Source: a virus (taxonomy: Duplodnaviria; Heunggongvirae; Uroviricota; Caudoviricetes). From it: a stretch of 64,000 bases of DNA. The stretch is taken from the IMG/VR virus record IMGVR_UViG_2639762987_000002; one strand, 5' to 3'. Shown in pieces: positions 45,988 to 62,897 of this stretch. A model generated the notes under the pieces. It saw only the letters and a program-made list of their open reading frames with translations. It was not told the origin of the DNA and did not search any database. Within the stretch, counting starts at the first letter, position 1; each line of letters starts with the position of its first letter. The translations under genes were made by a program, and so were the position numbers.

Positions 45988-46007
45988 GTGGACACCTTTG
46001 TCATTCA

Positions 46008-46109
46008 ACCGCTGACAGCATACTTGATTTGCCGCTGACAGAATACCAAAAACAGTTGGCAGCATACGGTGAACCGCTGACAGACTATCAATTACCGCTG
46101 ACAGCATAC
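46008..46109 (+). repeat. Origin-proximal iterons upstream of rep gene (5 copies, about 21-bp periodicity)
   Basis: Copies at 46008, 46031, 46052 (degenerate), 46073, 46094. Confidence 0.8.
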
Positions 46110-46149
46110 ATGAACATGACTTCAGACCAGGCGTGGCGCGGCTTACAGC

Positions 46150-46222
46150 GATCGGGGATCTTATTTGATCTATATAAGGATCTGTCTATGGATCTCTTTA
46201 TTAGGATCTATCCTGTGGATAT
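46150..46222. promoter_or_regulatory. Origin-like region: six clustered GATC sites and a DnaA-box-like TGTGGATAT
   Basis: GATC at 46150, 46157, 46168, 46180, 46191, 46205, four inside (A/T)GGATCT heptamers; TGTGGATAT at 46214-46222 is 8/9 to the DnaA box. Confidence 0.6.
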
Positions 46223-46308
46223 GTGAATAATTAAAACAGGCATTTACTACCTTCGGCGCACCTGGTGGGTTATCGTTGCCTCGGCTAACAATCACAGAAA
46301 AATGACAT

Positions 46309-46953
46309 ATGGATCTAAAACGCACGCGCTGGGTTCGTCGTCTTGAAGACGGCTCCTACACTATCGAATCAAATTCCAACCTGAATAAGCAGAAGTTGCT
46401 TTGTGACATCTGCGGTATAGCGGCGAAGTGCCCGATCTACGAAACCAGAATTAAACTTGATAAGGCTGGTGTGAATTTTCATTTAAACAGTTGCATCAGG
46501 TACGTTCCATTACTCGCATTTCGTAAACCGATCATCGGATTGGATGCTCCCTACTTCAACACACTCCGTTCAGGTGTGACGTGGCGAGATCGTTTATCAC
46601 CAGACAAGCTGATTTGCCTCGTATCCGCAGACACAGGGAAAATCATCCGTTTTGGGAAAGTAGACAAGGTTTACTCAGGCCCAGTAGACGAAATGTTGCG
46701 GAAACACAGCCGGTTTAATCATCTCTGTATGGGTGGTGAGAAAATCGAGAAGGTAGAAGAAGTGATCCGCAAATCCTACGGACACTTTCTGACCAAAGAT
46801 AGCCTGCTCACCGCAATCTACATCAAACATGTAAAACGTGAGTTCGACCTCGAATACCACAGCGAAGAAGAGCTTAACCTTGTTGACCCACGTCCAAAAG
46901 CTGGCGTCATAAGCATAAACGCAGCGCGTAAAAAGCCCACTGACGCGCTGTAA
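46309..46953 (+). CDS. Hypothetical protein
   Basis: 214 aa; several Cys; no motif recognised. Confidence 0.5.
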   Translation: MDLKRTRWVRRLEDGSYTIESNSNLNKQKLLCDICGIAAKCPIYETRIKLDKAGVNFHLNSCIRYVPLLAFRKPIIGLDAPYFNTLRSGVTWRDRLSPDKLICLVSADTGKIIRFGKVDKVYSGPVDEMLRKHSRFNHLCMGGEKIEKVEEVIRKSYGHFLTKDSLLTAIYIKHVKREFDLEYHSEEELNLVDPRPKAGVISINAARKKPTDAL

Positions 46954-47207
46954 CCCTCCAGATCGTATATTGGCGTAGATAGAATCTACGCCTCCTCAAA
47001 ATAGCTCTCATAGCGTTCTACAGTGATTCTGTCTTATTTTTAGTCATATAGACAAGCAAACTTGCGCCACAATAAATAGGTATATACTTACTTATAAATT
47101 TTGTATATTAAGGCGCTCGTTTCATTCCTAACATACCGTTATGCATAGTTGTTTACCTCATCATTGCTCTTAGAATTTGTATCAAAATAACCACAAAGGA
47201 AAAATAC

Positions 47208-48293
47208 ATGACTTTGCCATACGGCGTCATTTCTGACTGCCACTACCACAAATGGGATGCGTTCTCCACGACGAACGCTGAGGGGCTTAACTCCAGACTT
47301 GAAATACAGTTGGAAGCAACGAAAGAAGCAGCCATCGCCATGAAGAAGGCCGGTTGTAAGTACATGTTGGTTGCCGGTGATACATTTCACGTCCGAGGAA
47401 CTGTGTCCCCTTCTGTTTTGCATTACGTAACTGAAACGTACAAGTGGATTATCAACGAGCTTGATCTGATAGTAGTAATGCTGGCCGGTAATCACGATCT
47501 TGAAACCAACGATTCAGTATATAGCGCCAACGCAGCAGCATCGCTGAGTTCTATCGGCGTGGTAATCGTATGTGGCAAGCGCCCACACTCAATAAAAATT
47601 GGTGATGTGACTGTCCACCTGATTAGCTGGCGTAACAATCATGCGGAGCTTATCAGCGATCTGAAAGCATTACGTAAGAGCGTAGAAGGTGATAATCATG
47701 ACGTTGTTATCCATACATCCATTAACAAAGCCATTCCAACAATGCCTGACGTCGGTATCGATGCGCAGGAGTTAAAGGATATCGGCTTTCGTCTCGTGCT
47801 TAGTGGGCATTACCACAACCACAAAGAGGTCATTCCTGGAGTTATCAGTGTCGGTGCGCTGACCCATCAAAATTGGGGAGATGTTGGATCTCTGGCTGGT
47901 TACATGATCGTAAACCCGGACGGCAGTTTCAGTCACTACGAAACCAGTGCGCCTAAATTCATTAACCTGGAAGATTATGTTGCCGATGACCAAATTCGCG
48001 GCAACTACGTGCGTTTCCGCGCCGTAATCGAGAACGATGAAGAAGGCATTAAGTACCAGAACATCCTTAAAACAATGGGTGCAAAAGGTGTTGTGTGCAA
48101 CTTCATCCGTAAGTCATCAATGATGGAAGGGACTGCAAGCACAACGGAAACCAGCAAAATCGATAGCCTGGGAGAGTCGGTATCTGCTTATTGCAAGATT
48201 GTCCACGATACTGACGGCGGATTTGATCTGAGCAAGTTGGATATTTTGTGTCAGGAAATCCTCACCGAAGCGGAGAGTTCGGAGGCTGTGTGA
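47208..48293 (+). CDS. sbcD: SbcD/Mre11-family nuclease
   Basis: 361 aa; phosphoesterase motifs LVAGDTFH, LAGNHD, SGHYHNH; start context AAAGGAAAAATACATG. Confidence 0.75.
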   Translation: MTLPYGVISDCHYHKWDAFSTTNAEGLNSRLEIQLEATKEAAIAMKKAGCKYMLVAGDTFHVRGTVSPSVLHYVTETYKWIINELDLIVVMLAGNHDLETNDSVYSANAAASLSSIGVVIVCGKRPHSIKIGDVTVHLISWRNNHAELISDLKALRKSVEGDNHDVVIHTSINKAIPTMPDVGIDAQELKDIGFRLVLSGHYHNHKEVIPGVISVGALTHQNWGDVGSLAGYMIVNPDGSFSHYETSAPKFINLEDYVADDQIRGNYVRFRAVIENDEEGIKYQNILKTMGAKGVVCNFIRKSSMMEGTASTTETSKIDSLGESVSAYCKIVHDTDGGFDLSKLDILCQEILTEAESSEAV

Positions 48294-48526
48294 GGCAAAG
48301 TCGTTATGGGAGCTTTCGAGACTTTGCCATCACGATGAAAAGACTTGAACGAGGCCAGACGGTGATGTTTCACAAGCCCTACCCGCCACAAGGAAATCCC
48401 GTAGCGTTTTATCTTGGAAGGTTAACCAGAAAAGGCGTATTGAGGCGCAGATCCTTCCCGGCGCATACGGAGTTCAGATTGAAAGAAGGTCAAAAGCTAA
48501 CACACGGTATCAAAGGTGTTATATGA
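48290..48526 (+). CDS. Hypothetical small basic protein between sbcD and sbcC
   Basis: GTG 48290 after RBS GGAGG, GTGA overlap with sbcD stop; ORF track begins GTG 48248. Confidence 0.3.
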   Translation: MRQSRYGSFRDFAITMKRLERGQTVMFHKPYPPQGNPVAFYLGRLTRKGVLRRRSFPAHTEFRLKEGQKLTHGIKGVI

Positions 48527-50439
48527 AGTTTTTAAAGCTCCAGGTTGAGAATTTTATGGCTATCGCCAGCGCGGAGGTCGAGTTAGATCAGCGTGGTTTA
48601 GTGCTCATTCAGGGTGTTAATAGTGATGATAGTTCCGCATCAAGTAATGGCTCTGGAAAGTCAACGCTAATGAATAGCCTGATGTGGTGTCTTTATGGCG
48701 AAACAGCTCATGGTGTGAAGGGTGACGATGTGTTGTCTACCGACCATGAAAAGAACTGTCGTGTTGCAGTAACCATCGAGGATGAAGGCAAGAGATATGC
48801 GATCATTCGTCACCGTAAACACAAAGAGTTCAAAAATCGTCTTATCGTTCGTGGTGAAGATGGCGATATGACGAAAGGCAAAGATGCGCTGACGCAAGAG
48901 TTCGTCGAGCGTCTGATCGGTGCATCTAAAGAGGTTTTCATGGCTTCCATCTATGCGAGCCAAGAAGCTATGCCAGATTTACCTGGAATGTCCGACAAAA
49001 ACCTCAAAACCATCGTAGAAGAAGCCGCTGGCGTTGACAGACTGACACGCGCCTACGCTATTGCTCGTGAGCGAGCTAATGCAGCTGCCGCACGTATGGA
49101 TGTGGTTAAAACCAAATTGGAGTCGACAATCTCGACCATTGAGGCAACACAGTCAGAAATTGAGTCAGCGAAAGCCTCCTCTGAATCATGGGAGCAAGAG
49201 CGTTCTAAACGTTATGACGATGCCCTGGCTGGGCTGGCCAGTGCCGAAGTTGAGTTAACGGAAGTTGAACTTGAGATCCGCACTCTTCCCGAACAGATCC
49301 GTGATACCGAGAAGGCAATCGAAAGTGAGCGCAAAAAGTTAGCCTCAAAAGAAGAACATGACGCCAAGTTGCTCAAAGTTCGTGGTGCGATAACTGATAT
49401 TCGGGCAAGCATCAAAGCTACAGAAAATAGTCAGGCTGATGCAATGAGCCGCGCGCGTAATTTTAAGACCAAAGCAGAAGAGGTTGGTACTAAAGTGGGA
49501 TCACCATGTCCTACTTGTGGCAAAGCCTACTGCGAAGAAGATCTATCAACGGTGAAGGAGAATTTCATTGAACAAGCACGTCAGGAAATTGGTCAGGCGA
49601 AGACACTTGCAGAGGCAATGGCTAAACACAAAACGAATCTTGAGAAAGCGTTAAGCATTGAGTCTGCCCTTGTTAAAACGACACCTGATGTAACGGCTAT
49701 CATTGCCCGGATTGAAGAGCTTACGAAACAACTCTCATCTTTGCGTCATCGTGAGAAGGAGGTTGTTGCTATTGAGTCTCTTGTGACTCGTGCTCGTACT
49801 GAGGTCGATCGTATATCAAAAGAGATTAATCCGTTTATTGCTCTTATCGCCAGACACGAAGATAACTTGGTATCCAGTAAGTCTACCTTCAAGTCCTTAA
49901 AAGATGAGTTGAAGGCTATTCAGGAACAAACGTTGCTATTGGAAAAAGCTCGTCAGGTCTACTCTCCTGCCGGGGTGCGTTCTCATATTTTGACGTCTGT
50001 TACGCCTTTCCTGAATACACGCACTGCCGAGTATCTCAATACGTTGTCTGACGGGAATATTACTGCTGAGTGGTCGACGATGGATGTCACTAAAAAAGGT
50101 GAGTATCGCGACAAATTCAACATTAGTGTGCAGAAGAAAGGTTCAAGTAAGTCGTTCCAGACCCTCTCTGGTGGTGAGAAGCGGAAGGTTCGCATTGCGT
50201 GTTCTTTGGCATTGCAGGATCTGGTTAGTAACCGGGCGAGTAAAAACATCGATTTGTTTATCGGCGACGAAATTGACGATGCACTCGATACAGCCGGTCT
50301 TGAACGCCTCATGGGTATTCTGGAGTCCAAAGCTCGCGAGCGAGGTACTGTGCTGATTATCTCCCATAAAGAGATGAAGTCATGGTTCCGGGAAACTATT
50401 ACGCTGGAAGTTAAAGAGGGGCGCAGCTATGTCGTTTAA
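48523..50439 (+). CDS. sbcC: SbcC/Rad50-family ATPase
   Basis: 638 aa; Walker A NGSGKST, coiled coil with zinc-hook CPTCG, signature LSGGEKRK, Walker B DEIDDALD. Confidence 0.75.
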   Translation: MKFLKLQVENFMAIASAEVELDQRGLVLIQGVNSDDSSASSNGSGKSTLMNSLMWCLYGETAHGVKGDDVLSTDHEKNCRVAVTIEDEGKRYAIIRHRKHKEFKNRLIVRGEDGDMTKGKDALTQEFVERLIGASKEVFMASIYASQEAMPDLPGMSDKNLKTIVEEAAGVDRLTRAYAIARERANAAAARMDVVKTKLESTISTIEATQSEIESAKASSESWEQERSKRYDDALAGLASAEVELTEVELEIRTLPEQIRDTEKAIESERKKLASKEEHDAKLLKVRGAITDIRASIKATENSQADAMSRARNFKTKAEEVGTKVGSPCPTCGKAYCEEDLSTVKENFIEQARQEIGQAKTLAEAMAKHKTNLEKALSIESALVKTTPDVTAIIARIEELTKQLSSLRHREKEVVAIESLVTRARTEVDRISKEINPFIALIARHEDNLVSSKSTFKSLKDELKAIQEQTLLLEKARQVYSPAGVRSHILTSVTPFLNTRTAEYLNTLSDGNITAEWSTMDVTKKGEYRDKFNISVQKKGSSKSFQTLSGGEKRKVRIACSLALQDLVSNRASKNIDLFIGDEIDDALDTAGLERLMGILESKARERGTVLIISHKEMKSWFRETITLEVKEGRSYVV

Positions 50440-51172
50440 ATTAAGCCGCTCGCAGTTTTTGCAGGTATTTGCAGTGATGCAGTCGATAAAACTGATCAAT
50501 GGGCATACTTCCAATGGTGCGGCTCCACGTATTCTGTGGGGCAGCAACAATATTGACGGAGTACAATTTGCCGCGTTGCTTGGTCTAATATCCGAGACGC
50601 CATTGATGCAAAGTTTGAAATCACTACCACCTGGATGTATTGCGCCGATCCTGATTAATCCTTTTGTTGAGGGGGGATATCTTCCCAACGTCGGGCCTGG
50701 GTTTATTGCATCCCATGAAACTGAAGATCTTAACATTAATAGCGAAGGGTTCTTTGGGGGAATGGGTGCGCATCACTGTATGGCTTTCACGAACCTTATT
50801 CGACTTGCCAATAAGCGGGTGGATAGTTTGGCATCGCCAGGTGATGCTTTTACTGGTTTCCTTATCCAAAGGAGGGATAAAAAGTACAGTGCGGACAAAC
50901 TACAGTTTGTTGGTAAGTATGGAGAAATGGTAGAAATCGAACTTCAGCTCCCTCATGTTTTAGCAAACGATAGTGCAGACAGTCGGAGGCTGTTGGGCAT
51001 CATGCGTCATTTCATAGCAAGTGGTGTTAAACATACCGCAGATAAACGTGTCACGCAGGAAAATGAGTATTCAGACTTTGCAAACTATCCCCAACCAACG
51101 TTGCAAACGGCAATAGTAGCCAATTCGTTGGAGGCGAGATTATTGGAAAACCCTATATGGGGAACATGGTAA
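50429..51172 (+). CDS. Hypothetical protein
   Basis: 247 aa; overlaps sbcC stop by 11 nt. Confidence 0.5.
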   Translation: MSFKLSRSQFLQVFAVMQSIKLINGHTSNGAAPRILWGSNNIDGVQFAALLGLISETPLMQSLKSLPPGCIAPILINPFVEGGYLPNVGPGFIASHETEDLNINSEGFFGGMGAHHCMAFTNLIRLANKRVDSLASPGDAFTGFLIQRRDKKYSADKLQFVGKYGEMVEIELQLPHVLANDSADSRRLLGIMRHFIASGVKHTADKRVTQENEYSDFANYPQPTLQTAIVANSLEARLLENPIWGTW

Positions 51173-51181
51173 GGAGACTAT

Positions 51182-51751
51182 ATGAGTAAAAAAATCAGCG
51201 TAGTTGGTGTTGATCCCTCAATGAGCAACTTTGGGCTTGCTGTGGGCACTTTAGACCTTGAGACGGACGAACTTGAGATTCACGGCCTTACTCTTATTGA
51301 GACTAAAGCGGGGAGTAACAAAAAGACCGTTCGTGTGAACAGTGACGATCTGCGCCGAGCCAGTGAAATATGGCGTGTTGCGAAGCCAATCATTGATAAG
51401 GCAAATATGGTTTTTTGTGAGCTACCGGTTGGGAGCCAAAACTCTCGTTCGCAGACGTCTTACGGTATTTGTATCGGTGTACTTGCGTGTGTGGATAAGC
51501 CATTGATCCAGGTTACTCCAAACGAAATCAAGCATTTTGTCGGCAATAAACTTACTACATCGAAAGAAGAGATTATCCAGTGGGCTACGAAAAAACACCC
51601 TAAAGCACCGTGGCTGCGTCGTAAGCAATCTGGACAGGATGTTCTCGTGAACAAAAACGAACATTTGGCTGATGCGGTGGCTGCCATCCATACCGGTATG
51701 CAAACAGATCAGTTCCGCCAGGTGCGCGATGTTCTTAAGTCTCTCATTTGA
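51182..51751 (+). CDS. RuvC-like Holliday junction resolvase
   Basis: 189 aa; N-terminal VVGVDPSMSNFGLAVG, internal FCELPVG, C-terminal DAVAAIHTG resembling RuvC catalytic segments. Confidence 0.6.
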   Translation: MSKKISVVGVDPSMSNFGLAVGTLDLETDELEIHGLTLIETKAGSNKKTVRVNSDDLRRASEIWRVAKPIIDKANMVFCELPVGSQNSRSQTSYGICIGVLACVDKPLIQVTPNEIKHFVGNKLTTSKEEIIQWATKKHPKAPWLRRKQSGQDVLVNKNEHLADAVAAIHTGMQTDQFRQVRDVLKSLI

Positions 51752-51785
51752 TTTCATTGATAGGTAAGTGCTTATCTATTAACAT

Positions 51786-51815
51786 GGGCCACTATATTTA
51801 GTGGCCCTCTTTATT
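51786..51815 (+). terminator. Hairpin terminator
   Basis: GGGCCACT-atattt-AGTGGCCC followed by TCTTTATTT. Confidence 0.6.
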
Positions 51816-51824
51816 TGGTGATAC

Positions 51825-54140
51825 ATGATAAGCATCGTAAAACGTAACGGCCAAACAGAGCCGTTATCCGAAGAAAAATACAACCGCGTCGTAATGTATG
51901 GCGTAGAAGGCATTCGTGGTGTAAGCGCATCCGCTGTAGCAATGGGAGCTGCGGCCAGCATTTTTGATGGGATGACCACCAGCCAGTTGCATGAGGCTTT
52001 GGTTAAATCTGCCGCTGATTTGATCTCACCAGAAGCACCAAATTACTCACAGGTGGCTGCCCGCCTGAACATTTTTAAAATCCGCAAAGATGCCTTCGGT
52101 CGTTACGACTATCCGAACTTCTACCAACACATTGTCAAGAACGTTAACAAGGGCGTTTATGACAAGGATTTGCTGACACATTATTCGTTTGAAGAGATCG
52201 AAGAACTCGGCAATTACATTAAGCCGAAACGTGACGATCTTTTTGGCTATGCAGCTACGGTGCAGTTGCAAAGCAAATACCTCGTTCAAAACCGTGTTAC
52301 TGGTGAGATTCATGAGGGGCCGCAACATATCTATATGCTGGTAGGCATGTGTCTGTTCCAGAATTGGGAAGACGACTGCGCTGGCAAAACACGTATGGAG
52401 ATGGTCAAAGGTTTCTATGACGTTACAAGTACGTTCAAACTGTCTCTGCCCACACCTATCATGGCCGGCGTCCGTACTCCAACCCGTCAGTTCTCCAGTT
52501 GTGTGCTGATTGAGTCTGGCGATAGTCTGAAAGGGATTAGTGCAGCTTCAGCCGCAATTATCGACTACGTTTCACGTCGTGCTGGAATTGGTATTGGTAT
52601 TGGCCGTATCCGTGCGCTGGGCAGCGAGATCCGCAATGGTGAAGCCACCCATACCGGAGTTATTCCATTCCTGAAGCATTTCCAGACGGCTGTTAAATCT
52701 TGTTCGCAAGGTGGTGTTCGTGGTGGCGCAGCAACAGCGTTTTACCCGATCTGGCATCTTGAAGTTGAAAGTCTGCTGGTGGTGAAAAATAACCGTGGTA
52801 TTGATGAAAACCGCGTTCGCCATCTTGATTACGGCGTCATGAGTAACCGTCTAATGTACCGTCGACTCGTCAGAAGCGAGAACATCACTCTGTTCAGCCC
52901 GCATGATGTGCCTGATATGTACGAAGCCTTCTTCACAGACCAGGAGCTGTTTGAAAAGCTGTACCATAAATACGAAGCCGATGATTCAATTCGCAAGAAG
53001 TCAGTACCTGCCATTGAGCTGTTCTCATCTCTGATGCAGGAACGAGCGTCCACGGGCCGAATTTATATTGCGAACGTCGATCATATTAATGAGCATGGCG
53101 CTTTCATTCCTGCTCTTGCACCTGTCCGCCAGTCAAACCTGTGTATGGAGATCACCCTACCCACCCGTCCACTGGCATTTACCGACGACCCGAACGGTGA
53201 GATCGCGCTATGCACTTTATCCGCTTTTAACCTCGGAGCCATCCGTTCACTGGAGTCTCTTAAAGAGGTGGCGTTCTATGCCGTTGCTGCACTGGATTCG
53301 TTACTGGATTATCAAGACTATCCGATGGAGGCAGCCGAAGTGCCTGCCAAAGCTCGTCGTAGCTTGGGAATTGGTGTAACCAACTTTGCTTATTACCTGG
53401 CAAAGAATGGCGTTCGTTATTCTGATACCGCTGGCAATAAACTGGTGCATGAAACGTTCGAAGCTATCCAGTATTACCTTCTTGATGCCAGCTGCCGACT
53501 TGCTGAAGCAAAAGGTGAGTGTGACTGGTTTGAGCAGACCAAATACGCAATTGGTCAGTTGCCGATCGACCATTACCGTTCTTCATTAGACGAAAGTGGC
53601 GAAACCAACTTTGAGTTAAAGATGCCGTGGGAAGAACTGCGTGAACGTATTGCAAAATACGGCCTTCGCAACTCCACACTGACGGCACAAATGCCATGCG
53701 AGACTTCCAGCCAGATCACTAATTCCACCAACGGCATCGAACCGCCTCGTGGCCCGGTGTCGGTGAAATCTTCTAAGGACGGCATCGTTAAGATGGTCGT
53801 GCCTGAGTTTGAAAAACTGAAGGAACAGTATGAATACCTGTGGGATATGCCGGACAACCGCGGCTATCTGACAAAGGTGGCGATCATCCAGAAGTTCTTT
53901 GACCAGGCTATTTCAGCCAATACCAACTATGACCCTTCTCGCTTTGAAGGCGATAAAGTCCCAATGATGACGCTACTGTCAGATTTGCTTCTCGCCTACA
54001 AGATGGGAGTTAAAACGCTTTACTACCACAACACCAGAGATGGTGCAGGAAAGCGTGATGACGACGAACCGCAGAATCCACTGGCGCAAGCTGTAGCCGT
54101 CGAGCCAGAAGATGAGTGCGACGGAGCCTGCAAAATCTGA
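51825..54140 (+). CDS. nrdA: Ribonucleotide reductase class Ia large subunit
   Basis: 771 aa; N-terminal ATP-cone-like VKRNGQTEPL; active-site SNLCMEITLPT and PCETSSQI. Confidence 0.9.
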   Translation: MISIVKRNGQTEPLSEEKYNRVVMYGVEGIRGVSASAVAMGAAASIFDGMTTSQLHEALVKSAADLISPEAPNYSQVAARLNIFKIRKDAFGRYDYPNFYQHIVKNVNKGVYDKDLLTHYSFEEIEELGNYIKPKRDDLFGYAATVQLQSKYLVQNRVTGEIHEGPQHIYMLVGMCLFQNWEDDCAGKTRMEMVKGFYDVTSTFKLSLPTPIMAGVRTPTRQFSSCVLIESGDSLKGISAASAAIIDYVSRRAGIGIGIGRIRALGSEIRNGEATHTGVIPFLKHFQTAVKSCSQGGVRGGAATAFYPIWHLEVESLLVVKNNRGIDENRVRHLDYGVMSNRLMYRRLVRSENITLFSPHDVPDMYEAFFTDQELFEKLYHKYEADDSIRKKSVPAIELFSSLMQERASTGRIYIANVDHINEHGAFIPALAPVRQSNLCMEITLPTRPLAFTDDPNGEIALCTLSAFNLGAIRSLESLKEVAFYAVAALDSLLDYQDYPMEAAEVPAKARRSLGIGVTNFAYYLAKNGVRYSDTAGNKLVHETFEAIQYYLLDASCRLAEAKGECDWFEQTKYAIGQLPIDHYRSSLDESGETNFELKMPWEELRERIAKYGLRNSTLTAQMPCETSSQITNSTNGIEPPRGPVSVKSSKDGIVKMVVPEFEKLKEQYEYLWDMPDNRGYLTKVAIIQKFFDQAISANTNYDPSRFEGDKVPMMTLLSDLLLAYKMGVKTLYYHNTRDGAGKRDDDEPQNPLAQAVAVEPEDECDGACKI

Positions 54141-54202
54141 CATATGGTGGGGGATATCCCCACCTTCTCTTTGATTTGTAAGCCTTGTTTAAACACATAA
54201 GA

Positions 54203-54215
54203 TAACAACTTGTTT
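54203..54215. promoter_or_regulatory. Palindrome tAACAAcTTGTTT upstream of nrdB
   Basis: Member of the AAACAA-N-TTGTTT family. Confidence 0.4.
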
Positions 54216-54246
54216 AAACGCACCAAAAAAGAAAAAGGAAAAACAC

Positions 54247-55389
54247 ATGTCATATTCAACGTTCCGTTTGGGTGCTAATGATGCAACCAAAGAGCCTATG
54301 TTCCTCGGACAATCTGTCAACGTGGCACGTTACGATCAGCAAAAATACCGTGATTTTGAAAAGTTGATTGAACGTCAATTGTCTTTCTTCTGGCGGCCGG
54401 AAGAAGTTGATATTTCGAGCGATCGTATCGACTTCAACACGAAGCTGCGGGACCACGAACGTCACATTTTTCTGAGCAATCTCCGTTATCAAACGTTACT
54501 CGATTCAGTTCAGGGACGTAGTCCAAATGCAACGCTGCTGCCGCTTATCTCTATTCCTGAACTGGAAACGTGGGTTGAAACGTGGTCTTTCTCTGAGACT
54601 ATCCATAGCCGCAGCTACACCCACATTATTCGTGGCATGGTGGACGATCCGAGCATTGTTTTTGACGGTATTGTTACGGATGAAGAAATCATCAACCGAG
54701 CGATCAGTATCTCTGCTGAATATGACAGGCTTTATGGGATGACCTGCGAGCGCCAGTCGTTAGGTGAGAAGGAATTTGAGCGTCTGTACGTAAATGAATA
54801 TGGCTGGGAGCCATACCCTTTGCATCGTCAGCTTTTCCGCACGTTGGTGTCCATTAATGCTCTTGAGGCGATCCGTTTCTACGTAAGTTTTGCATGTACG
54901 TTTGCCTTTGGTGAACGGAAGTTGCTTGAGGGTAACACCAAAATTATGCGCTTTATTGCCCGTGATGAAGCTCTGCATTGCGAAGGAACTGAACGCATGA
55001 TCCGCTTCATGCGTACCGGTCGCGAAGGTTTATTGTGGAAAGAGATTGCTGCTGATGAAGAAAACGTCATTTACGACACCATGAAATCAGTCGCCGAACA
55101 AGAAATGAACTGGGCAGACTATCTCTTCAAAGACGGTTCGATGATTGGTTTAAACGCGGATATTCTCAAAACCTATGTAAAATACCGCACCAATCTGGCT
55201 ATGAATCGTCTTGGCCTGAAGTCTTTATTTCCAGAAGTTACCACTGATCCGCTGGTCTGGATGAACAAGTGGTTGTTAACCGACACACTGCAAATTGCAC
55301 CACAAGAGGCAGAGCAAAGCACATATCTGGTAGGTCAGATCGATTCTACCGTGGATAAGGCTTCTCTAAGCCAGTTTGCAGACCTGTAA
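54247..55389 (+). CDS. nrdB: Ribonucleotide reductase class Ia small subunit
   Basis: 380 aa; di-iron/tyrosyl-radical protein features; directly downstream of nrdA; start context AAAAAGGAAAAACACATG. Confidence 0.9.
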
Positions 55390-55466
55390 ACCGATACAAA
55401 GCATTATGTGGCCTAGCAACGCTGGGCCACAATGGATCACAAGAATTAAGAAGGAACAAAACTAGC

Positions 55467-56336
55467 ATGAACTTTACCAAACTGACTGACCACCTGAAAC
55501 TTGCCACCGATCGACTCATTGGATTTAAGCCAGAACCATATGAATTGCATGAAGGCCATGGTGTAGCCACTGAAAGTATTTACAAGATGGTCGATCAGTT
55601 TCATGAACTCTTCCAGCATCCGAGACGCGTTATGCCGACACCAGAGCTGCTTCGTCTCCGTGCAAGCCTGATTCATGAAGAAGCTGTAGTGGAAGGTATT
55701 CCAGCTGCAATGAATGGGGATATTGAGCAACTGCTGGATGCAATGGCCGACTTTTTATACGTTGGTGTTGGTACGATGGTCGCCATCAAAGGTGGTATTT
55801 CTACCGGCATGACCTATTACACGCAGGAACAGAGCATTGATCGCTTTATGCAGACAATTTTTGTGCCTGGTAACACTGTTTTCGATGATATGGCAATGCC
55901 ATTTCAGGAAGCTCGTGAGGCGTCATGTATGCTCGAAGAGCTGGCAGATAAACTTGAGAAGAAGACTGTTAAGGATTCTGAGCTGATTCAGGAACTGCGC
56001 CGTGTAATGAACAAAATCTATGTGGCGTGCATGATGACTTATCGACTGGCTGATTTTCTCGGTATCAATGTCGTCGAGCTGGTTGGCGAAATTCATCGGT
56101 CCAACATGACAAAATTATGGCCTGCAGATGCCGAAGAGCGTCGCCATGCTGTGGCCAACTGCAAATACGACTCTTCTGACCTGGGATTTCGCCATGCTGA
56201 TGGCACCGATAAGATGATCGGTTTTCGAATTTCCGATGGAAAGATTCTGAAGTCTCCAACCTATAGTGATGTCGATTTATCCTCCTTTGTTGAGCAAGCT
56301 AAAGCCTCAGCAATGTACGGAATGATCAAAAAATAA
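55467..56336 (+). CDS. Possible MazG-like nucleoside triphosphate pyrophosphohydrolase
   Basis: 289 aa; helical EExxE/D-rich segment LIHEEAVVEGIPAAMNGDIEQLLDAMADFLYV; assignment tentative. Confidence 0.4.
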   Translation: MNFTKLTDHLKLATDRLIGFKPEPYELHEGHGVATESIYKMVDQFHELFQHPRRVMPTPELLRLRASLIHEEAVVEGIPAAMNGDIEQLLDAMADFLYVGVGTMVAIKGGISTGMTYYTQEQSIDRFMQTIFVPGNTVFDDMAMPFQEAREASCMLEELADKLEKKTVKDSELIQELRRVMNKIYVACMMTYRLADFLGINVVELVGEIHRSNMTKLWPADAEERRHAVANCKYDSSDLGFRHADGTDKMIGFRISDGKILKSPTYSDVDLSSFVEQAKASAMYGMIKK

Positions 56337-56405
56337 TTGTAGGTAGTTATCTATCTGTGTATATTGCGCTGGCGCGTTAAATTTCTGAAACAACTATTCG
56401 TTTTT

Positions 56406-56431
56406 GGTGGCCTATGGCCACCATTTTTTTA
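56406..56431 (+). terminator. Rho-independent terminator
   Basis: TGGTGGCC-tat-GGCCACCA followed by TTTTTTT. Confidence 0.8.
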
Positions 56432-56507
56432 TCTGTCTGGTCTTGTTCTCTCAATAAATGTAAACTCACGCAATGAATAAGTGGTTACTTATCTTTGTGA
56501 GGTTTTT

Positions 56508-57611
56508 GTGTCACTCCTTTTGAATCGTGAGCATACGAACGGTCAGGTAACAAACGCATCGTATGCAAAAGTTATTGAGACGGTGCTTAAAAGCGGCGTG
56601 CAGGCTGATGATCGCACAGGCACTGGTACTTTAAGCACCTGCTACGTTCCCTCTTACTACATGCTTACTGGTGGGACTGTGCCGCTTATTTCTGGAAAGG
56701 CGGTAAATCTTAAGCCACTGCTTGTCGAACTTGAGTGGTATCTGAAAGGCACGGGCAACATCCAATTTCTCAAGGATAACGGCGTTAAGATTTGGGATGC
56801 ATGGGCCGATGAGAATGGCGATTTGGGGCCGGTTTACGGTAAGCAGTGGCGTCGATGGGAAGATACCCGCATCGTGAGCCATAGTGAATATCTGAGCAAG
56901 ATCGCTACTTTCCGTGAACGCGGGTACAAAGTCGAGGGATACCTGGGTATCAGTGAAGATCGCGTAGTGCTGTCCCGTGAAATCGATCAGCTACAGCGTA
57001 TTGTCGATACACTGCGCACGAACCCTACCGATCGTCGCATCATGCTTAACGCATGGAACGTAGGCGAGCTTGAGGATATGAAACTGCCACCTTGCCACTT
57101 TGTCTTCTCTTTGTGGAGTCGTGAACTGGATTTTGAAACCCGTTTAACGATGGCAACTGACATTGGTCTACAACACAGTCGCCTCGGTTATGAGTCTATC
57201 TACACCAAGATGCTATACGATCTGGAGATGGACGGCAGTGTTACTGAAACTGAACTGGATGAACTTGGAATCCCCAAACGCATCCTCAACTCCTGCCTCG
57301 TACAGCGTAGCGTAGACACTTTTGTTGGTATGCCATTCAATATTGCTGGCTATGGCATTCTCACTCATTTTCTCGCGAAGATTACGGGTCACATGGCCGG
57401 TGCATTTGTGCATTTTGGCTTTGACGTGCATTTGTACAACAACCACATGGAAGGTGTGTGTGAGCTAATGCAACGACAGGCTCCAGAGCATTCAGATCCG
57501 GTCGTTATATTCCCTAATGAATGGTCTGAGCTGGATGATTTCAAATGGGACGAGATTCTTATTCTTGGCTATGCCCCTCTACCGTGGATCAAGGTTCCAG
57601 TGGCGGTGTGA
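56508..57611 (+). CDS. thyA: Thymidylate synthase (ThyA)
   Basis: DRTGTGTLS near N-terminus and catalytic MLNAWNVGELEDMKLPPCHFVFSLW; start uncertain (GTG 56508 after GAGG; ORF track begins GTG 56481). Confidence 0.85.
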   Translation: MSLLLNREHTNGQVTNASYAKVIETVLKSGVQADDRTGTGTLSTCYVPSYYMLTGGTVPLISGKAVNLKPLLVELEWYLKGTGNIQFLKDNGVKIWDAWADENGDLGPVYGKQWRRWEDTRIVSHSEYLSKIATFRERGYKVEGYLGISEDRVVLSREIDQLQRIVDTLRTNPTDRRIMLNAWNVGELEDMKLPPCHFVFSLWSRELDFETRLTMATDIGLQHSRLGYESIYTKMLYDLEMDGSVTETELDELGIPKRILNSCLVQRSVDTFVGMPFNIAGYGILTHFLAKITGHMAGAFVHFGFDVHLYNNHMEGVCELMQRQAPEHSDPVVIFPNEWSELDDFKWDEILILGYAPLPWIKVPVAV

Positions 57612-57612
57612 T

Positions 57613-58026
57613 ATGGCAAGAGGTATGTATGTCTTATGCGAAATTGAAGGTGTGCTGGCAAATACCAGCCATCGTAAATCTGTATCTGACTCGGATGCAG
57701 GCCAATTCATTGCCGGTGATGAACTCATTTTCCCCACCAGCCGTATGTTGCGTGGTTTTGCTCGCTCAGGGGCTGAAGTGGTGCTTATCAGTAGCCGCTC
57801 TGAAACTCTTGAAGCGCCCACTAAACGATGGCTGAAAGATTTTGGTGTTGATTACGACTGGCTTCACCTCGTACCGAATAGCACTAGTTATGAGAAGCAT
57901 ATTAAGCGCACATTAGCGGAGCATAAAGGCGATCTGCTTATCGCTGCGCTGGTGCACGATCCTCGACTCCGTGCCGCTTTAGCTGACTCACATCATAGAC
58001 CGGTCATCTATGAGGTGAGCAAATGA
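57613..58026 (+). CDS. Hypothetical protein
   Basis: ATG 57613 two nt after thyA stop; ORF track begins 57517 inside thyA; no motif recognised. Confidence 0.4.
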   Translation: MARGMYVLCEIEGVLANTSHRKSVSDSDAGQFIAGDELIFPTSRMLRGFARSGAEVVLISSRSETLEAPTKRWLKDFGVDYDWLHLVPNSTSYEKHIKRTLAEHKGDLLIAALVHDPRLRAALADSHHRPVIYEVSK

Positions 58027-58499
58027 AGATGATAGCTGCTGTTGGCCGTAACTATGAGATCGGCATAGCGAACGAACTGCCCTGGCGTTGTTCTACCGAT
58101 CTGAAGCTATTTAAGAGACTCACCAAAAACGCCACTGTCGTTATGGGGCGTAAAACGATGGAAAGTCTCAAACGCCCTCTTCCAGAGCGTCATAACCTCG
58201 TTTTGACGCGCTCTCATGGCTTTGTACCAAATGGATTCTACCCTGCTGGTGTGGATGATGTGTTGCGATTACCAGAGCCTGTGTGGGTGATTGGCGGGGA
58301 ACAAATTTACTCGCTATTCATGCCGCATGTTGAAGAGATTTGGCTCTCCCACATCGGCGTTGATGTGCCAAACGCCGATGCATTCTTCCCGGCAAGCATG
58401 ATGCGTAATTTAGGCTTTGTGCCTGTTGAAACAGCTTATACCCAACGAGCCAGCGAGGAAGAGCCTGGCTTTTCGCAGATCGTATACAGAAGGTCGTAA
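58023..58499 (+). CDS. folA: Dihydrofolate reductase
   Basis: 158 aa; MIAAVGRNYEIGIANELPWR and VVMGRKTMESL match DHFR N-terminal motifs; ATGA overlap with upstream gene. Confidence 0.85.
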   Translation: MKMIAAVGRNYEIGIANELPWRCSTDLKLFKRLTKNATVVMGRKTMESLKRPLPERHNLVLTRSHGFVPNGFYPAGVDDVLRLPEPVWVIGGEQIYSLFMPHVEEIWLSHIGVDVPNADAFFPASMMRNLGFVPVETAYTQRASEEEPGFSQIVYRRS

Positions 58500-59143
58500 T
58501 GGATTACCGGATTGGGATCACTGGTGCTCAGGGCAGTGGGAAAACAACCCTGGCTAAATATATCGACAAACATTACGGAATCCCTTACGTGGATGCTGGT
58601 GTCGGAAGTTTGATGAGCCGCCTCGGTGTTCGAGTAGGTGATTCTATGCCTCTATATGAGCGGCTTCAGATTCAAATGGAAATAGCAAAGCATATAGAGC
58701 TACTTACGCGTGGTGCTGAAGGCTTTGTTATCGATCGCACACCTGCTGATGTTATGGCCTACACGTTGGATTTGGTCGGCCATACAAATGAAGATCGGTG
58801 TATTGAGTTAGCCCTCGATATCGAAAAGTTTTGCCACAAAACTGCTATTTCAAACTTTAACGCCATTGCTGGCCTACGCCCGGGGGTCGCTCTCTCAGAG
58901 CGAGATTACTTGCGGTCACAACGAGCATCATTAGACCGTCTGTATGTCGCTCGTATTGATGCGTTGATGTGCGGGGAACTGACAAAAATTCACCTGCATC
59001 CGCAAAGGGGAGATCTGCAAACCTTCGTCGTTTCCAACCGGTATCGCACAGTTGAAGCAAGAGCCAGATCAGTGATGAGAATGCTAGATAACGCGGTAGA
59101 AAAGATAGAAAACCGGTTCTGTGGCCGAGTGACCGTTCATTAG
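58499..59143 (+). CDS. P-loop nucleotide kinase (possible dNMP kinase)
   Basis: 214 aa; Walker A GITGAQGSGKTT at N-terminus; sits in nucleotide-metabolism cluster. Confidence 0.45.
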   Translation: MDYRIGITGAQGSGKTTLAKYIDKHYGIPYVDAGVGSLMSRLGVRVGDSMPLYERLQIQMEIAKHIELLTRGAEGFVIDRTPADVMAYTLDLVGHTNEDRCIELALDIEKFCHKTAISNFNAIAGLRPGVALSERDYLRSQRASLDRLYVARIDALMCGELTKIHLHPQRGDLQTFVVSNRYRTVEARARSVMRMLDNAVEKIENRFCGRVTVH

Positions 59144-59204
59144 AAATTGTTCGCCTCTTCGACATTGCGACAATAAAACTCTCAAAATGGGTTAAGGATA
59201 AAAA

Positions 59205-59624
59205 ATGTTTAGTGAAATGTTGCTTGAAGATGAACTGGATCGGAAAACAACAGAGGCTTTGATTCGTGTAGCGGACGAACATTCCCGGTCGCTTATGAGC
59301 GATCGAGAGGCTCGTCTGGCTATTCGTGCCATATTCGAAACTGCGCAGGGGCTTGTTGGTACACAAGTGGGTGAAGCCATTAACATCGCCATGTCTCAGT
59401 TCAGTGAAGGCAGTAAAAAGTCTCTGTTTCCTATGCATTTGATGCTGGCTGGTGGCACGGTGCTTTATATCTCTGTTTGTCTGGATAGCAACCAAATCAA
59501 TATTCTCAACACTGTGTCAGGTAAGTGGAAAGATCCGATTGTCTGTGAAACCAGTGAAGAAACTTTGAAAAAAGCGGCTCAATTTGTACGTAGCGCACTA
59601 CTTAAGGGCGCTAAGAAGTTGTAA
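59205..59624 (+). CDS. Hypothetical protein
   Basis: 139 aa; helical. Confidence 0.5.
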   Translation: MFSEMLLEDELDRKTTEALIRVADEHSRSLMSDREARLAIRAIFETAQGLVGTQVGEAINIAMSQFSEGSKKSLFPMHLMLAGGTVLYISVCLDSNQINILNTVSGKWKDPIVCETSEETLKKAAQFVRSALLKGAKKL

Positions 59625-59633
59625 GGAGTTCTG

Positions 59634-60191
59634 ATGACAACGATTGTTGCAGGCATCGATATCGAGTCTACGGGACTGGATTTCCTTGCTGGTCATAAAA
59701 TTATTGAAATCGCAATTACCCGCTATGAACTGGAGACACAGAGACATATTGATAGTCTGGAGATGCGTTTTAACCCTCGCAGAAACATAGATCCGAAAGC
59801 TCAAGCCGTTCATGGCATTTCATTGGAACAGCTCGCAGCTGAACCTTTGTTGTCAAATCATGCCAGCGAAATTGGCGCTTATATGGGGGCATGTAGTGTG
59901 TGGGTTGCTCATAACGGCGAAGCATTTGATATACCATTTATTCGACACGAGTTTTCAGGGTATGGAGTAAGACTGCCAGAAGTTCCTGTTATAGATACTA
60001 TGTTATCGGGATTGTGGGCCACAGAAGACGGCAAACGTCCCCGCCTTGAAGAGTTGGCCTTCTCTCTTGGCTATATATACGATCATGCCAAAGCACATAG
60101 TGCCTTATATGACACAAACTTAATGATGCAATGCTTCTTTAAGGCACGTAATAAGTACGGATTTTTTAAATTACCCTCTGAAATTGTGTAA
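59634..60191 (+). CDS. DnaQ-like 3'-5' exonuclease (DEDDh)
   Basis: 185 aa; Exo I GIDIESTGL, Exo II HNGEAFD, Exo III HSALYDT. Confidence 0.75.
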   Translation: MTTIVAGIDIESTGLDFLAGHKIIEIAITRYELETQRHIDSLEMRFNPRRNIDPKAQAVHGISLEQLAAEPLLSNHASEIGAYMGACSVWVAHNGEAFDIPFIRHEFSGYGVRLPEVPVIDTMLSGLWATEDGKRPRLEELAFSLGYIYDHAKAHSALYDTNLMMQCFFKARNKYGFFKLPSEIV

Positions 60192-60195
60192 AACA

Positions 60196-60233
60196 AAAGC
60201 CTACTTTAAAAAGTTTAAAGTAGGCTTTCTTTT
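60196..60233 (+). terminator. Rho-independent terminator
   Basis: AAAGCCTACTTT-loop-AAAGTAGGCTTT followed by CTTTT. Confidence 0.8.
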
Positions 60234-60349
60234 AAAGAACAGTAGCCTTTCAATCATTTCCTGCCTGTATTTAATACTTTTCCGCCTGATAGGTTTAGTC
60301 AAAATGCAGCCATCGAAACGCAAATGTAACCAAACAGAAGGAGACTTAC

Positions 60350-61159
60350 ATGAGTTCGGTTGAAAATGTAATGACAAATGATGATCTGGACGAGCTGACA
60401 GCCATGTTGCAATCACTTGATGAACCAGTAAAAAAAGCTGCACAGGTTGAAAATACTGATGATATTGACGATCTGCTGCTCGGCCTAGATGCTGGCGTAG
60501 CCATGAGTTCTGATGATGTTGCCGAAGAACTGTTCAATGAAGAAAAAGCAGGTGATTTCAGCTCTGCTTTAAATGAGTTGGAGTTAGCGCATGAGCCTAT
60601 AAACGTAATTAACGCTGAAAGTGTTGAAGCTGCCGAAAACGAGCCAGAACAATTGGGATTTATTGAGGTTGAAGAGTGTGTTGAGGTTAATGATGAATTA
60701 AAAGTTCAACAGTCAAATGATAGCAATACAAATAAAAAAGCTCGTACTGCAAGAGGTCCTCGTTTTACTTTAAGTGATAAAGATGATTCGTTTTTCAATA
60801 AAGCGGGCTTAGAAAAAGATATTTTCTTAGACGCTTACGATAACGCGCCTGTCAAAGCAAAGGATAAGATATTAAACCTTCTTAATTGGTTTAGCGGAGG
60901 TCCAGATATTAGTGTTTACACGGTAATTTCCATGAGACACCTTCTCACAGAAAAGAAGGCTACAAGTAATAGTATTAAGATTGCTTTAATGAGCAATCCA
61001 GAAAAACCGTATCCGCTTAATACTGCGTCAACTCAGGCTGGGCAAATGATGGCTGTATTTCCAGCGACAGGAATTGCCGTTAGAGACGGTGGAAATCTAA
61101 CATTGAACGAAGAATCACCGATCGTTAAGAAGTTTGTCGCGGAGTACACTATTGGATGA
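60350..61159 (+). CDS. Hypothetical acidic protein
   Basis: 269 aa; D/E-rich N-terminal half; RBS AAGGAG. Confidence 0.5.
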   Translation: MSSVENVMTNDDLDELTAMLQSLDEPVKKAAQVENTDDIDDLLLGLDAGVAMSSDDVAEELFNEEKAGDFSSALNELELAHEPINVINAESVEAAENEPEQLGFIEVEECVEVNDELKVQQSNDSNTNKKARTARGPRFTLSDKDDSFFNKAGLEKDIFLDAYDNAPVKAKDKILNLLNWFSGGPDISVYTVISMRHLLTEKKATSNSIKIALMSNPEKPYPLNTASTQAGQMMAVFPATGIAVRDGGNLTLNEESPIVKKFVAEYTIG

Positions 61160-61342
61160 CGTTCCCCTACTTAAAATAAAGCCCATAGAGAGCTTTATAG
61201 TACTGGGTAAGCCAATCACATACCCAGCACCACAAAAACGCGCCAGAGAGCTTCTCGTTTGCATTTCTGGCGCGTTTTATTTGATTGCCAGACATAAAAT
61301 CAAATGCAAAAATAGGTATATACTTACCTATCGAGAAAGAAG

Positions 61343-61936
61343 ATGATTGCAGCCGAAAAAATCAAACAGCGAAAGCGCGACAACTCTCTTCGTGACCTCT
61401 GGAGAACACCTGACTGGCTGTTTTCTGCCATTCAACGTTATCTTGGAGTGACATTTGATGTTGACGTTGCCTGCAACAAGGACAATGCAAAGCTGCCTAA
61501 TTTCATAGGCGTTGAGCGTGATGCTTTGAAATCTGAATGGGGACAGCCAGGTACAATTGCCTTCCTCAATCCACCCTACTCCAAAATCTCCCCCTGGATT
61601 GATGCGGCTATACGTGAGCAGGCTCGCGGAGTTACAACAGTGATGCTAATTCCTCAATCCCTAGATACAAAGTGGTATGAGCGTGCAACAGAGTGTGCGA
61701 ATGAGACGATTATTCTGTCTGGTGGCCGCGTAGCGTTTGTCGAGCCTGACGTAAATCTGGGTCAGGTAGAAGTAAACATCAACCCAGGTGGCAGTATGCT
61801 CGTTGTTTTTCGAGGATTCTGTCAGGACGCTGGGCACTCTATAAGCAAGATCCCTTTGGACGTCATGAAAAGTCTGGGAGGGTATGATCCTGCGAATGTG
61901 ATCAGGAAAAAAAGACCATCAAAGAAGGCTGCTTAG
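61343..61936 (+). CDS. DNA N6-adenine methyltransferase (phage Dam-like)
   Basis: 197 aa; catalytic FLNPPYSKISPW (NPPY) motif. Confidence 0.7.
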   Translation: MIAAEKIKQRKRDNSLRDLWRTPDWLFSAIQRYLGVTFDVDVACNKDNAKLPNFIGVERDALKSEWGQPGTIAFLNPPYSKISPWIDAAIREQARGVTTVMLIPQSLDTKWYERATECANETIILSGGRVAFVEPDVNLGQVEVNINPGGSMLVVFRGFCQDAGHSISKIPLDVMKSLGGYDPANVIRKKRPSKKAA

Positions 61937-61956
61937 TTTGTTCTGGTGTCTGTAAT

Positions 61957-62015
61957 TAGCCTGCTTCTGTATATATAAATAACTACATATTAATTATTAA
62001 TATACGGAAGAAGGC
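61957..62015. promoter_or_regulatory. AT-rich element with TATAAATA core flanked by imperfect inverted repeats (copy B)
   Basis: CTGTATATATAAATAA...TATACGGAAGAAGG; paralogous to 15766-15822. Confidence 0.4.
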
Positions 62016-62121
62016 TGTTTTGTATCAGAGACTCCAGACCTGAACATCACTACAGAATCCACTAGAACCCCTTCCCAGACGCTTTAAAATCGATTTTATG
62101 AACCACTTTAAGGAAACCAAC

Positions 62122-62349
62122 ATGTCATACCCGACTAATGTCGTTGCGCTCGTAGAGAGCGATTTTCTGGCCCAGGCTCGTGAAATGATGAAAGATCGTG
62201 AGCAGGCTTTCAACTTGTACGAATGGGCAATTAAGTGCTTGCATCTTGGCGAGCATCGCGAACTTGTTGAACAGCTTTTAGGTGAGTTGATCAATGAGGT
62301 GTTTGCCTTGAATGTTCAACTACATGGTAGAGAAAATAATCAATCATAA
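62122..62349 (+). CDS. Hypothetical small protein
   Basis: 75 aa from ATG 62122 with RBS AAGGAAA (ORF track begins 62098). Confidence 0.45.
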   Translation: MSYPTNVVALVESDFLAQAREMMKDREQAFNLYEWAIKCLHLGEHRELVEQLLGELINEVFALNVQLHGRENNQS

Positions 62350-62399
62350 TGATAGATAAGTACAAACTATTCATAAAGTGAATTGTAAGTGCTAAGATC

Positions 62400-62850
62400 T
62401 GATAGTTTCCAGTCGTAGACTGGAGACTCGACCTGATGGGTGGGGGTAAGCGTCACTGGCGTCAGGTTTAAAAAAGCTCACTACCAGCGTAGAACTGGTG
62501 CCGTTTAGGTGTCGGGGAAGGGGGAACCAAAGTGAGCAGAGACAAGGGTCACTTTATGATTGTCGAGTCTGGGGTGTTTCGAGAGGTTGAATCCAGTACT
62601 CCCCTTCATAAAGTGTGGGAAGATCTCGGTTCTGGGGTGCTGTCATCCATAACTTCCCAAGTCTAAGCTGGCAGTAGACTTAGACCATAACTTTTCAGGT
62701 TATGAAACGACCAGGTTGGTGAGAGATTTTTATACTCACCTCCCTGGGAGAGTATTACCTGAAAAGACAACCTCTCACTTCGTTCGAGGTGAACTTCACT
62801 CACTTCGTTCGTTCAGTTCAGGTTTATAAAAACCTGTTCTGGGAAGTAAT
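62400..62850 (+). ncRNA. Candidate structured RNA or regulatory leader in an ORF-free region
   Basis: No ORF; complementary AGACTCGAC (62424-62432) and GTCGAGTCT (62562-62570); repeated TCTGGGGTG and CACTTCGTTCG motifs. Confidence 0.25.
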
Positions 62851-62872
62851 TTGTTTATTTTAATAATTATTA

Positions 62873-62897
62873 ACACGCACGCGTGTGCGCACGCGCG
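62873..62897. other. 25-nt strictly alternating purine-pyrimidine tract (Z-DNA-prone)
   Basis: ACACGCACGCGTGTGCGCACGCGCG containing palindromes CACGCGTG and GTGCGCAC; upstream of RNase H start. Confidence 0.6.

Follow-up and report, generated by a model that had tools for sequence, protein, structure and literature searches.

The window analysed here is a 64,000-nucleotide stretch of a tailed-phage genome (Caudoviricetes; IMG/VR record IMGVR_UViG_2639762987_000002), and this account concerns two of its features: a cluster of GATC sites beside a plasmid-type replication gene, repA, and a gene for a Dam-like N6-adenine DNA methyltransferase. An earlier note on this DNA had read the pair as a possible coupling of methylation to replication, on the model of phage P1, in which the origin carries GATC heptamers and the phage encodes a Dam-type methylase of its own. 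Judged by its nearest relatives, the source of the window is an SSU5-like phage-plasmid: positions 45000–48000 are 99.0% identical at the nucleotide level to Escherichia phage PhiR41_1, 99% to the ‘phage CMS-2020a’ plasmids, 95% to phage Cyrano and 77% to Salmonella phage SSU5. The methyltransferase region has the same set of relatives, that of Cyrano being 98% identical to that of the window. Comparison with other origins identifies the GATC cluster as the core of a P1-type oriR, the origin of the plasmid-prophage, with its parts in the order tandem DnaA boxes, AT-rich core of GGATCT heptamers, GC-rich box, five iterons, repA and twelve iterons. They are listed here by position in the window.

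44362 to 44892, plus strand: twelve iterons of consensus CCGCTGACAGCATA, 3′ of repA (12 matches, each with at most two mismatches), the putative counterpart of the P1 incA copy-control array
44893 to 45987, minus strand: repA, predicted iteron-binding initiator of the P1 RepA/RepFIB family, 364 amino acids (aa) (Pfam Rep3_N, 5.2e-09)
46009 to 46108, plus strand: five iterons CCGCTGACAGCATA, 21–23 bp apart, 5′ of repA, the putative counterpart of P1 incC
46130 to 46142, no strand assigned: GC-rich box GGCGTGGCGCGGC of the origin core, the same in P1 oriR except for flanking bases
46150 to 46210, no strand assigned: AT-rich origin core with six GATC, five of the six in GGATCT-type heptamers 10–14 bp apart
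46214 to 46230, minus strand: two tandem DnaA-box-like sites, TGTGGATAT and TGTGAATAA (in plus-strand letters), each one mismatch from TTATCCACA

The six GATC sites, at positions 46150, 46157, 46167, 46179, 46191 and 46205, fall within 59 bp. When the 261 GATC of the window were placed at random in 64 kb, 7 of 5000 trials brought at least six of them together within 60 bp (p ∼1.4e-3); the total itself is unremarkable (261 observed, 250 ± 14 expected). No second 60-bp stretch with more than three GATC was found in the 64-kb window or in the other 45 kb of PhiR41_1. Outside oriR, the maximum across the ∼108-kb genome is three GATC per 60 bp and four per 200 bp, which is chance level. One group of three within 60 bp, at 61849–61895, lies in the 3′ end of the methyltransferase gene and is likewise at the level of chance, most random placements reaching three. 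The origin-like region with six GATC in 60 bp to which the earlier note had drawn attention is thus a genuine cluster, and the sole one in the element.

This distribution also bears on a role that the phage enzyme might share with the P1 methylase, Dmt, namely control of packaging by methylation of a GATC-rich pac site, which would license cleavage by terminase. In dam− hosts, cleavage of P1 pac depends on Dmt (PMC12707154), and it is this, not an action at oriR, that constitutes its documented role. With no second GATC cluster in the genome to correspond to such a pac site, we consider packaging control to be extremely improbable here.

Matches to the iteron CCGCTGACAGCATA number 21 in the whole window, as compared with 4.6 expected, and the iterons contain no GATC. 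Local GC content is 57% at the GC-rich box and 32–33% in the adjoining AT-rich repeats. RepA has a Rep3 winged-helix domain, with a Rep3_N score above the Pfam cutoff, and is 43.5% identical to P1/P7 RepA over 76% of the protein and 47.9% identical to the RepA of SSU5 and Cyrano; a PDB sequence search with RepA gave no match. Translation of repA likely starts at the ATG at 45987, giving 364 aa, rather than at position 46107 of a mechanically called 404-aa open reading frame (ORF), because the former start is annotated in PhiR41_1 and the latter would run through the iterons. A consensus promoter scan of the repA–origin region revealed no sigma-70-like site. By analogy with P1 incC, the five iterons at 46009–46108 would act both as origin iterons and as the site of repA autoregulation, and the six-GATC core is presumed to combine Dam-methylation and SeqA-binding sites with the region of unwinding.

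The comparison with P1, whose features were taken from the GenBank annotation and secondary citations, is close. The P1 oriR core can be aligned with that of the window base for base (P1 ...GACGTGGCGCGGCCTGCAACGATCAGGGATCTATATGGATCTAATTGGGATCTGTATGGACCTGATTATTGGATCTATCCAGTGGATAATGTGGATAA, window ...GGCGTGGCGCGGCTTACAGCGATCGGGGATCTTATTTGATCTATATAAGGATCTGTCTATGGATCTCTTTATTAGGATCTATCCTGTGGATATGTGAATAA); the annotated P1 Dam sites 1–5 occupy positions homologous to the GATC heptamers of the window, and the annotated oriR DnaA site is homologous to its DnaA-like boxes. The P1 layout incC–repA–incA matches the order of parts seen here: incC has five iterons at ∼21-bp spacing, where the window has five at 21–23 bp, and incA has nine annotated iterons, where the window has twelve in the same position. 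The two origins differ in iteron sequence (CCGCTGACAGCATA in the window, CAGCACACAT type in P1), in the number of GATC (six in the window and five in P1, the fifth P1 repeat being GGACCT), in the DnaA boxes, each of which carries one mismatch in the window, and in the length of RepA, which has 364 aa with N- and C-terminal extensions in the window as compared with 286 aa in P1. What had been proposed as an origin with a parallel to the P1 heptamers can therefore be stated more sharply: position for position, the core aligns as a homologue of P1 oriR.

The core heptamers of P1 are bound by SeqA in a methylation-specific manner, and SeqA requires at least two hemimethylated GATC on the same face of the helix, a requirement that the 10–14-bp spacing in the window would fit. 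In order to compare the cores more widely, nine of them were aligned with MAFFT: those of the window and P1, both modules each of Cyrano and SSU5, and those of Klebsiella pJN2-26, Cronobacter JK004 and RCS47. All follow a common plan of GC-rich box, GGATCT heptamers and tandem DnaA boxes, and the second and sixth GATC are invariant in nine of nine. Across the nine, identity to the window is 91% in the GATC columns and 60% in those between them; the cores share ancestry, and a Fisher p-value for this difference overstates their independence. The backing that the sequence itself gives to methylation dependence of this oriR consists of this selective conservation of GATC columns, and both the dependence and the binding of SeqA are carried over from P1 and RepFIB. 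The P1 and ColV-K30 plasmids cannot do without methylation of their origins (PMC2865523).

Elements of the SSU5/Cyrano/pHCM2 type share the phage backbone with the window and have kept an origin core with all six GATC. They also have in common with it the adjoining gene of unknown function, annotated in Cyrano as coding for an ASCH-domain protein, and the methyltransferase gene (∼86% protein identity in the Salmonella/Enterobacteriaceae relatives). Cyrano and SSU5 differ from the window in carrying a different repA (48% identity to that of the window) and CTCTATAGTGG-type iterons that are unrelated to those of the window, and in having two tandem modules of iterons, GATC core and DnaA boxes (Cyrano segment 2266–3008, SSU5 segment 2416–3159) where the window has one. 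In the repA-proximal core of both, three of the six GATC have been lost (GGGTCT/GGTTCT). Nucleotide homology between Cyrano or SSU5 and the window starts at 46139–46149, exactly at the core. Because this breakpoint falls precisely between iterons and core, it implies, as far as sequence can tell, that a rep–iteron cassette has been exchanged against a conserved core.

The replicon segment is present in 143 PLSDB plasmid records, in 121 of the 143 over at least 80% of its length; the carriers are mostly ∼110-kb non-mobilizable E. coli plasmids, pECOH89 among them. The methyltransferase gene occurs at an identity of at least 95% in 177 plasmids, and its orthologues are confined to ∼100–113-kb elements of Escherichia, Salmonella, Cronobacter, Klebsiella, Enterobacter, Xenorhabdus and Providencia. 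When contigs were scanned with the protein of unknown function encoded next to the origin, the only matches were close SSU5-type relatives, every one with six GATC; no Xenorhabdus or Providencia elements for origin comparison were among them. SSU5-type origin regions with six of six GATC are also found in ∼58–109-kb contigs of Kluyvera and Buttiauxella and in the Yersinia pestis NCTC5923 assembly.

The methyltransferase gene and the signals in front of it are arranged as follows.

61235 to 61285, plus strand: hairpin terminator with a T-run (−27.3 kcal/mol), between a gene for a 269-aa protein and the methyltransferase gene
61285 to 61331, plus strand: promoter-like site TTGCCA-17-AAAAAT with a TG, then a 20-bp palindrome, ATAGGTATATACTTACCTAT, a candidate operator
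61343 to 61936, plus strand: orphan N6-adenine DNA methyltransferase of the T1-Dam family (PF05869/TIGR01712/phrog_111), 197 aa

The ORF matches Pfam PF05869 ‘Dam’ (2.5e-38; 131.8 bits, cutoff 28.1), the NCBIfam equivalog TIGR01712 ‘phage N-6-adenine-methyltransferase’ (113.9 bits, cutoff 97.05) and phrog_111 (1.6e-65). The NPPY motif IV occupies residues 76–79 (nucleotides 61568–61579); in an alignment of 18 sequences its N, P and P are invariant and its Y is at least 90% conserved, Aaphi23 having NPPF. The earlier description of an NPPY-motif, Dam-like N6-adenine methyltransferase at 61343–61936 agrees with these matches, which place it among the phage Dam-family enzymes. It is an orphan: the best PADLOC models are those for ‘orphan methyltransferase’, the adjoining ORFs gave no nuclease or defence-system match with PADLOC or Pfam, and the PF05869 gene is the sole methyltransferase gene in the element. 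PhiR41_1 has a further ORF annotated as ‘DNA modification methylase’ (28064–28732 of that genome, outside the window); it contains a ParB_N domain only, without a methyltransferase domain, and the annotation is likely to be mistaken.

A PDB sequence search with the methyltransferase and with a five-sequence family profile gave no match. The AlphaFold model (predicted local distance difference test, 85.7) matches only remote Rossmann-fold N6-adenine methyltransferases (KsgA, M.TaqI and CamA catalytic domains) at a template-modelling score of ∼0.45, and matches as remote as these carry no information on specificity. The model is that of a minimal N6-adenine enzyme with a Rossmann fold and no separate recognition domain. 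With the T1-type Dams, represented by T1 Dam, M.EcoVT2Dam and M.Phi93DAM, it has in common the Pfam and NCBIfam family, a single recognizable NPPY motif, small size, orphan status and a phage-borne gene. It differs from the characterized members in that identity to them is only 26–33%, in its basic C-terminal tail, KKRPSKKAA, and in belonging to a separate clade restricted to SSU5-like phage-plasmids of Enterobacterales.

By phylogenetic bracketing, the window enzyme probably targets GATC. T1 Dam, to which it is 27% identical, is GATC-specific. The same target has been reported for M.EcoVT2Dam of Stx2 phages (bioRxiv 10.1101/173336), and the VT2-type dam gene of Stx2-1717 is 33–39% identical to the window enzyme. 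Single-molecule real-time sequencing, together with DpnI/DpnII digestion of DNA from both phage and plasmid, established GATC specificity for the lactococcal 936-phage enzyme M.Phi93DAM, which according to the authors carries only the NPPY motif (PMC4190342); it is assigned to PF05869 and is 32% identical to the window enzyme. The characterized members are 28–34% identical to each other, the same range as each shows with the window enzyme, and a neighbour-joining tree places the window clade as sister to the VT2 type. Because GATC-specific members of ∼30% mutual identity bracket the window clade, GATC is the parsimonious prediction. The non-specific adenine methylases Hia5 and Hin1523 were considered as relatives and ruled out; they are kin of classical Dam with DPPY/FxGxG motifs, and are uninformative with respect to the window enzyme.

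An enzyme with a relaxed or non-GATC target, serving in anti-restriction only, would make its co-occurrence with a GATC origin a coincidence. Such a specificity would be compatible with the low identity to any characterized enzyme, with the small size of a protein that has no separate target-recognition domain and with the frequent use of phage orphan methyltransferases in anti-restriction. Nevertheless, VT2 Dam, M.Phi93DAM and T1 Dam all share GATC specificity despite being as distant from one another as they are from the window enzyme, and we found no PF05869 member with a different specificity; a target other than GATC is thus doubtful.

The likeness to the P1 methylase that the earlier note had suggested extends to both enzymes being phage-encoded and Dam-type, but not to the proteins themselves. 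P1 Dmt is a 754-aa fusion of PF00145 and PF02086 (C5/D12-class) and belongs to an unrelated protein family; the window enzyme gave no match to PF02086, the family of E. coli Dam, T4 Dam and the C-terminal domain of P1 Dmt, and BLASTP against P1 Dmt gave E = 0.11, that is, no detectable similarity. P1 Dmt, a GATC methylase, is likewise encoded by a phage-plasmid, and lies a few kb from oriR, where the methyltransferase gene of the window is 15 kb from the origin. A loose synteny was also noticed between window positions 55467–63525 and P1 65233–70822, in which a GATC-type methylase gene comes after a gene for a nucleoside triphosphate pyrophosphohydrolase (uhr in P1, a MazG-like gene here); next, on the same side of oriR in both, are homologues of tciA/tciB, those of the present element lying beyond the window end and being known from the Cyrano annotation only.

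The model implied by the earlier note is that the phage Dam exists to methylate the oriR cluster, thereby freeing plasmid replication from host Dam. Conservation of both the GATC origin and the methyltransferase across the SSU5-like family would be in keeping with such a system, as would an origin core of the methylation-dependent P1 type and an enzyme that is probably GATC-specific. Expression points the other way. The data concern lysogenic and macrophage conditions in the related phage Cyrano, which has a 98% identical methyltransferase region and a different repA cassette. In lysogens grown in lysogeny broth, the Cyrano orthologue of the methyltransferase gene, CYRAN_79, has log2(5+FPKM) values of 2.82/2.32 (FPKM, fragments per kilobase per million mapped reads), equivalent to ∼0–2 FPKM and at the floor, the adjoining DNA-metabolism genes are low (∼0–10 FPKM), and Cyrano RepA stands at 7.39/6.63, a mean of ∼128 FPKM (LF82 transcriptome, PMC9928086 S1 Table). 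Because the methyltransferase is at the transcriptional floor in these lysogens while repA is expressed, the origin in the plasmid state would appear to rely on host Dam.

Other considerations lead in the same direction. The recorded hosts of the SSU5-like family are all Enterobacterales according to the host list and, to our knowledge, all are Dam-positive; replicons reliant on host Dam, of the P1 family and RepFIB, have homologous GATC cores. The P1 plasmid itself reportedly still needs the host enzyme. P1 dmt lies behind the C1-controlled operator Odmt (P1 annotation) and is repressed in lysogeny, and, as far as the title of Abeles and Austin (1987) indicates, it does not rescue the plasmid in dam− cells. 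We conclude that methylation of the origin in the plasmid state is most likely carried out by host Dam, as in P1 and ColV-K30, and that a phage enzyme dedicated to plasmid replication is very unlikely. Of the coupling that had been proposed, the P1-type GATC origin and the Dam-family enzyme both stand; what does not is coupling in the plasmid state, when the methyltransferase of Cyrano is silent and its repA is expressed. A functional link between enzyme and origin is plausible for the lytic phase only, and is unsupported for plasmid replication.

The signals around the methyltransferase gene bear on its timing. The hairpin at 61235–61285 has a z-score of −4.65, with none of 200 shuffles folding as well, and the palindrome lies directly before the methyltransferase ATG; from this arrangement, the gene is predicted to be a monocistronic, terminator-bounded transcription unit of its own. 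A 70-aa ORF at 61134–61346 overlaps both neighbouring genes and holds the terminator and the promoter-like site. This ORF matches no family and is left unannotated in Cyrano, and it is probably not a gene. The palindrome, ATAGGTA-N6-TACTTAT, recurs at ∼15 sites in the window, as compared with 0.7 expected in shuffles, and nearly all of them are intergenic and just upstream of genes.

5984, 10765, 15898, 19332, 20203, 22848, 25733 and 36008: 20-bp palindrome sites
39528, 43569, 47076, 51760, 56477, 61312 and 63525: 20-bp palindrome sites, continued

Genes with a copy directly upstream include those for the methyltransferase, SbcD, NrdA and ThyX, and also a tail fibre gene and others; the genes behind palindrome sites that were checked are silent or near-silent in Cyrano lysogens. 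The palindrome is probably a phage regulatory site and may serve as an operator or promoter element in a regulon that spans the phage.

A lytic link between enzyme and origin could take the form of a switch, in which phage Dam, derepressed on induction and abundant, rapidly remethylates oriR and ends its sequestration by SeqA, converting a copy-controlled origin into one that re-fires for lytic amplification. The sole GATC cluster of the genome sits at oriR, no separate lytic origin was identified here, and the methyltransferase gene seems to be part of a regulon that is silent in lysogeny, with a palindrome in common with the SbcD, NrdA and ThyX promoter regions; each of these would suit a switch. 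The helicase, primase, DNA polymerase III (Pol III) alpha subunit and ligase encoded by the element suggest, however, a distinct mode of lytic replication. Furthermore, handcuffing of iterons through the twelve incA-like repeats would still limit oriR, and such an origin is absent from other phages with a T1-type Dam (T1, Stx phages and 936 phages among them). We regard the switch as unlikely; if it were true, a phage-plasmid would be employing its own methylase to free its replication from the sequestration clock of the host.

The reading that we favour, and consider likely, is that a P1-type oriR is served by host Dam in lysogeny, and that a separate, orphan T1-type Dam acts lytically. If the origin works as do its homologues in P1 and RepFIB, iteron-bound RepA and DnaA would together open the AT-rich core, which would need Dam methylation in order to fire; after firing, hemimethylated GATCs spaced about one helical turn apart would be bound by SeqA, delaying re-initiation. 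During lysogeny, host Dam would supply this methylation. The phage Dam would most likely act after induction or infection, when the phage replisome may outpace host Dam, and would keep progeny DNA fully GATC-methylated, which could protect it from GATC-directed restriction in the next host and from nicking by MutH. Any effect on oriR, such as shorter sequestration by SeqA, would be only a side consequence. We propose that the enzyme keeps fast-replicating DNA methylated because the element has its own helicase, primase, Pol III alpha subunit, ligase, ribonucleotide reductase and ThyX.

Several points weigh against this reading. In current practice, a recognition motif is transferred between methyltransferases under an 80%/80% rule, and an identity of 26–33% falls far below that threshold, leaving GATC specificity as a prediction from bracketing; the neighbour-joining tree used for the bracketing was without support values. 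Methylation dependence of this oriR is carried over from other plasmids. The expression data come from a related phage with a different repA cassette, and lytic expression of the methyltransferase is assumed. Finally, we know of no GATC-specific restriction system that is a common threat in Escherichia, and the benefit of a second Dam may accordingly be questioned.

The origin and the methylase are both real but ordinary, and the analysis extends known P1 and T1 biology to another family of phage-plasmids without overturning current understanding. SSU5-like phage-plasmids are found widely in Escherichia, Salmonella, Klebsiella and allied genera, and resistance genes are present on some of them. 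A P1-type origin, presumably under Dam/SeqA control, predicts dependence on host dam and incompatibility of the kind seen with IncY/RepFIB plasmids, and the predicted minimal replicon, at ∼44.3–46.3 kb of the window, could be of use in building vectors or in curing. The gene for the orphan Dam is a conserved part of the backbone, and anti-restriction, evasion of mismatch repair and release of the origin from sequestration are its candidate roles. Methylation goes unmentioned in a published study of a Klebsiella SSU5-like plasmid that acts in defence against incoming DNA.

The replication and DNA-metabolism genes of the element lie in two regions of the window.

∼16700 to 35500: genes for a DnaB-like helicase, primase, ligase, tRNAs and the Pol III alpha subunit, assigned by correspondence with Cyrano CYRAN_32–49
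47208 to 60191: genes for SbcCD, ribonucleotide reductase, ThyX, dihydrofolate reductase and an epsilon-like exonuclease

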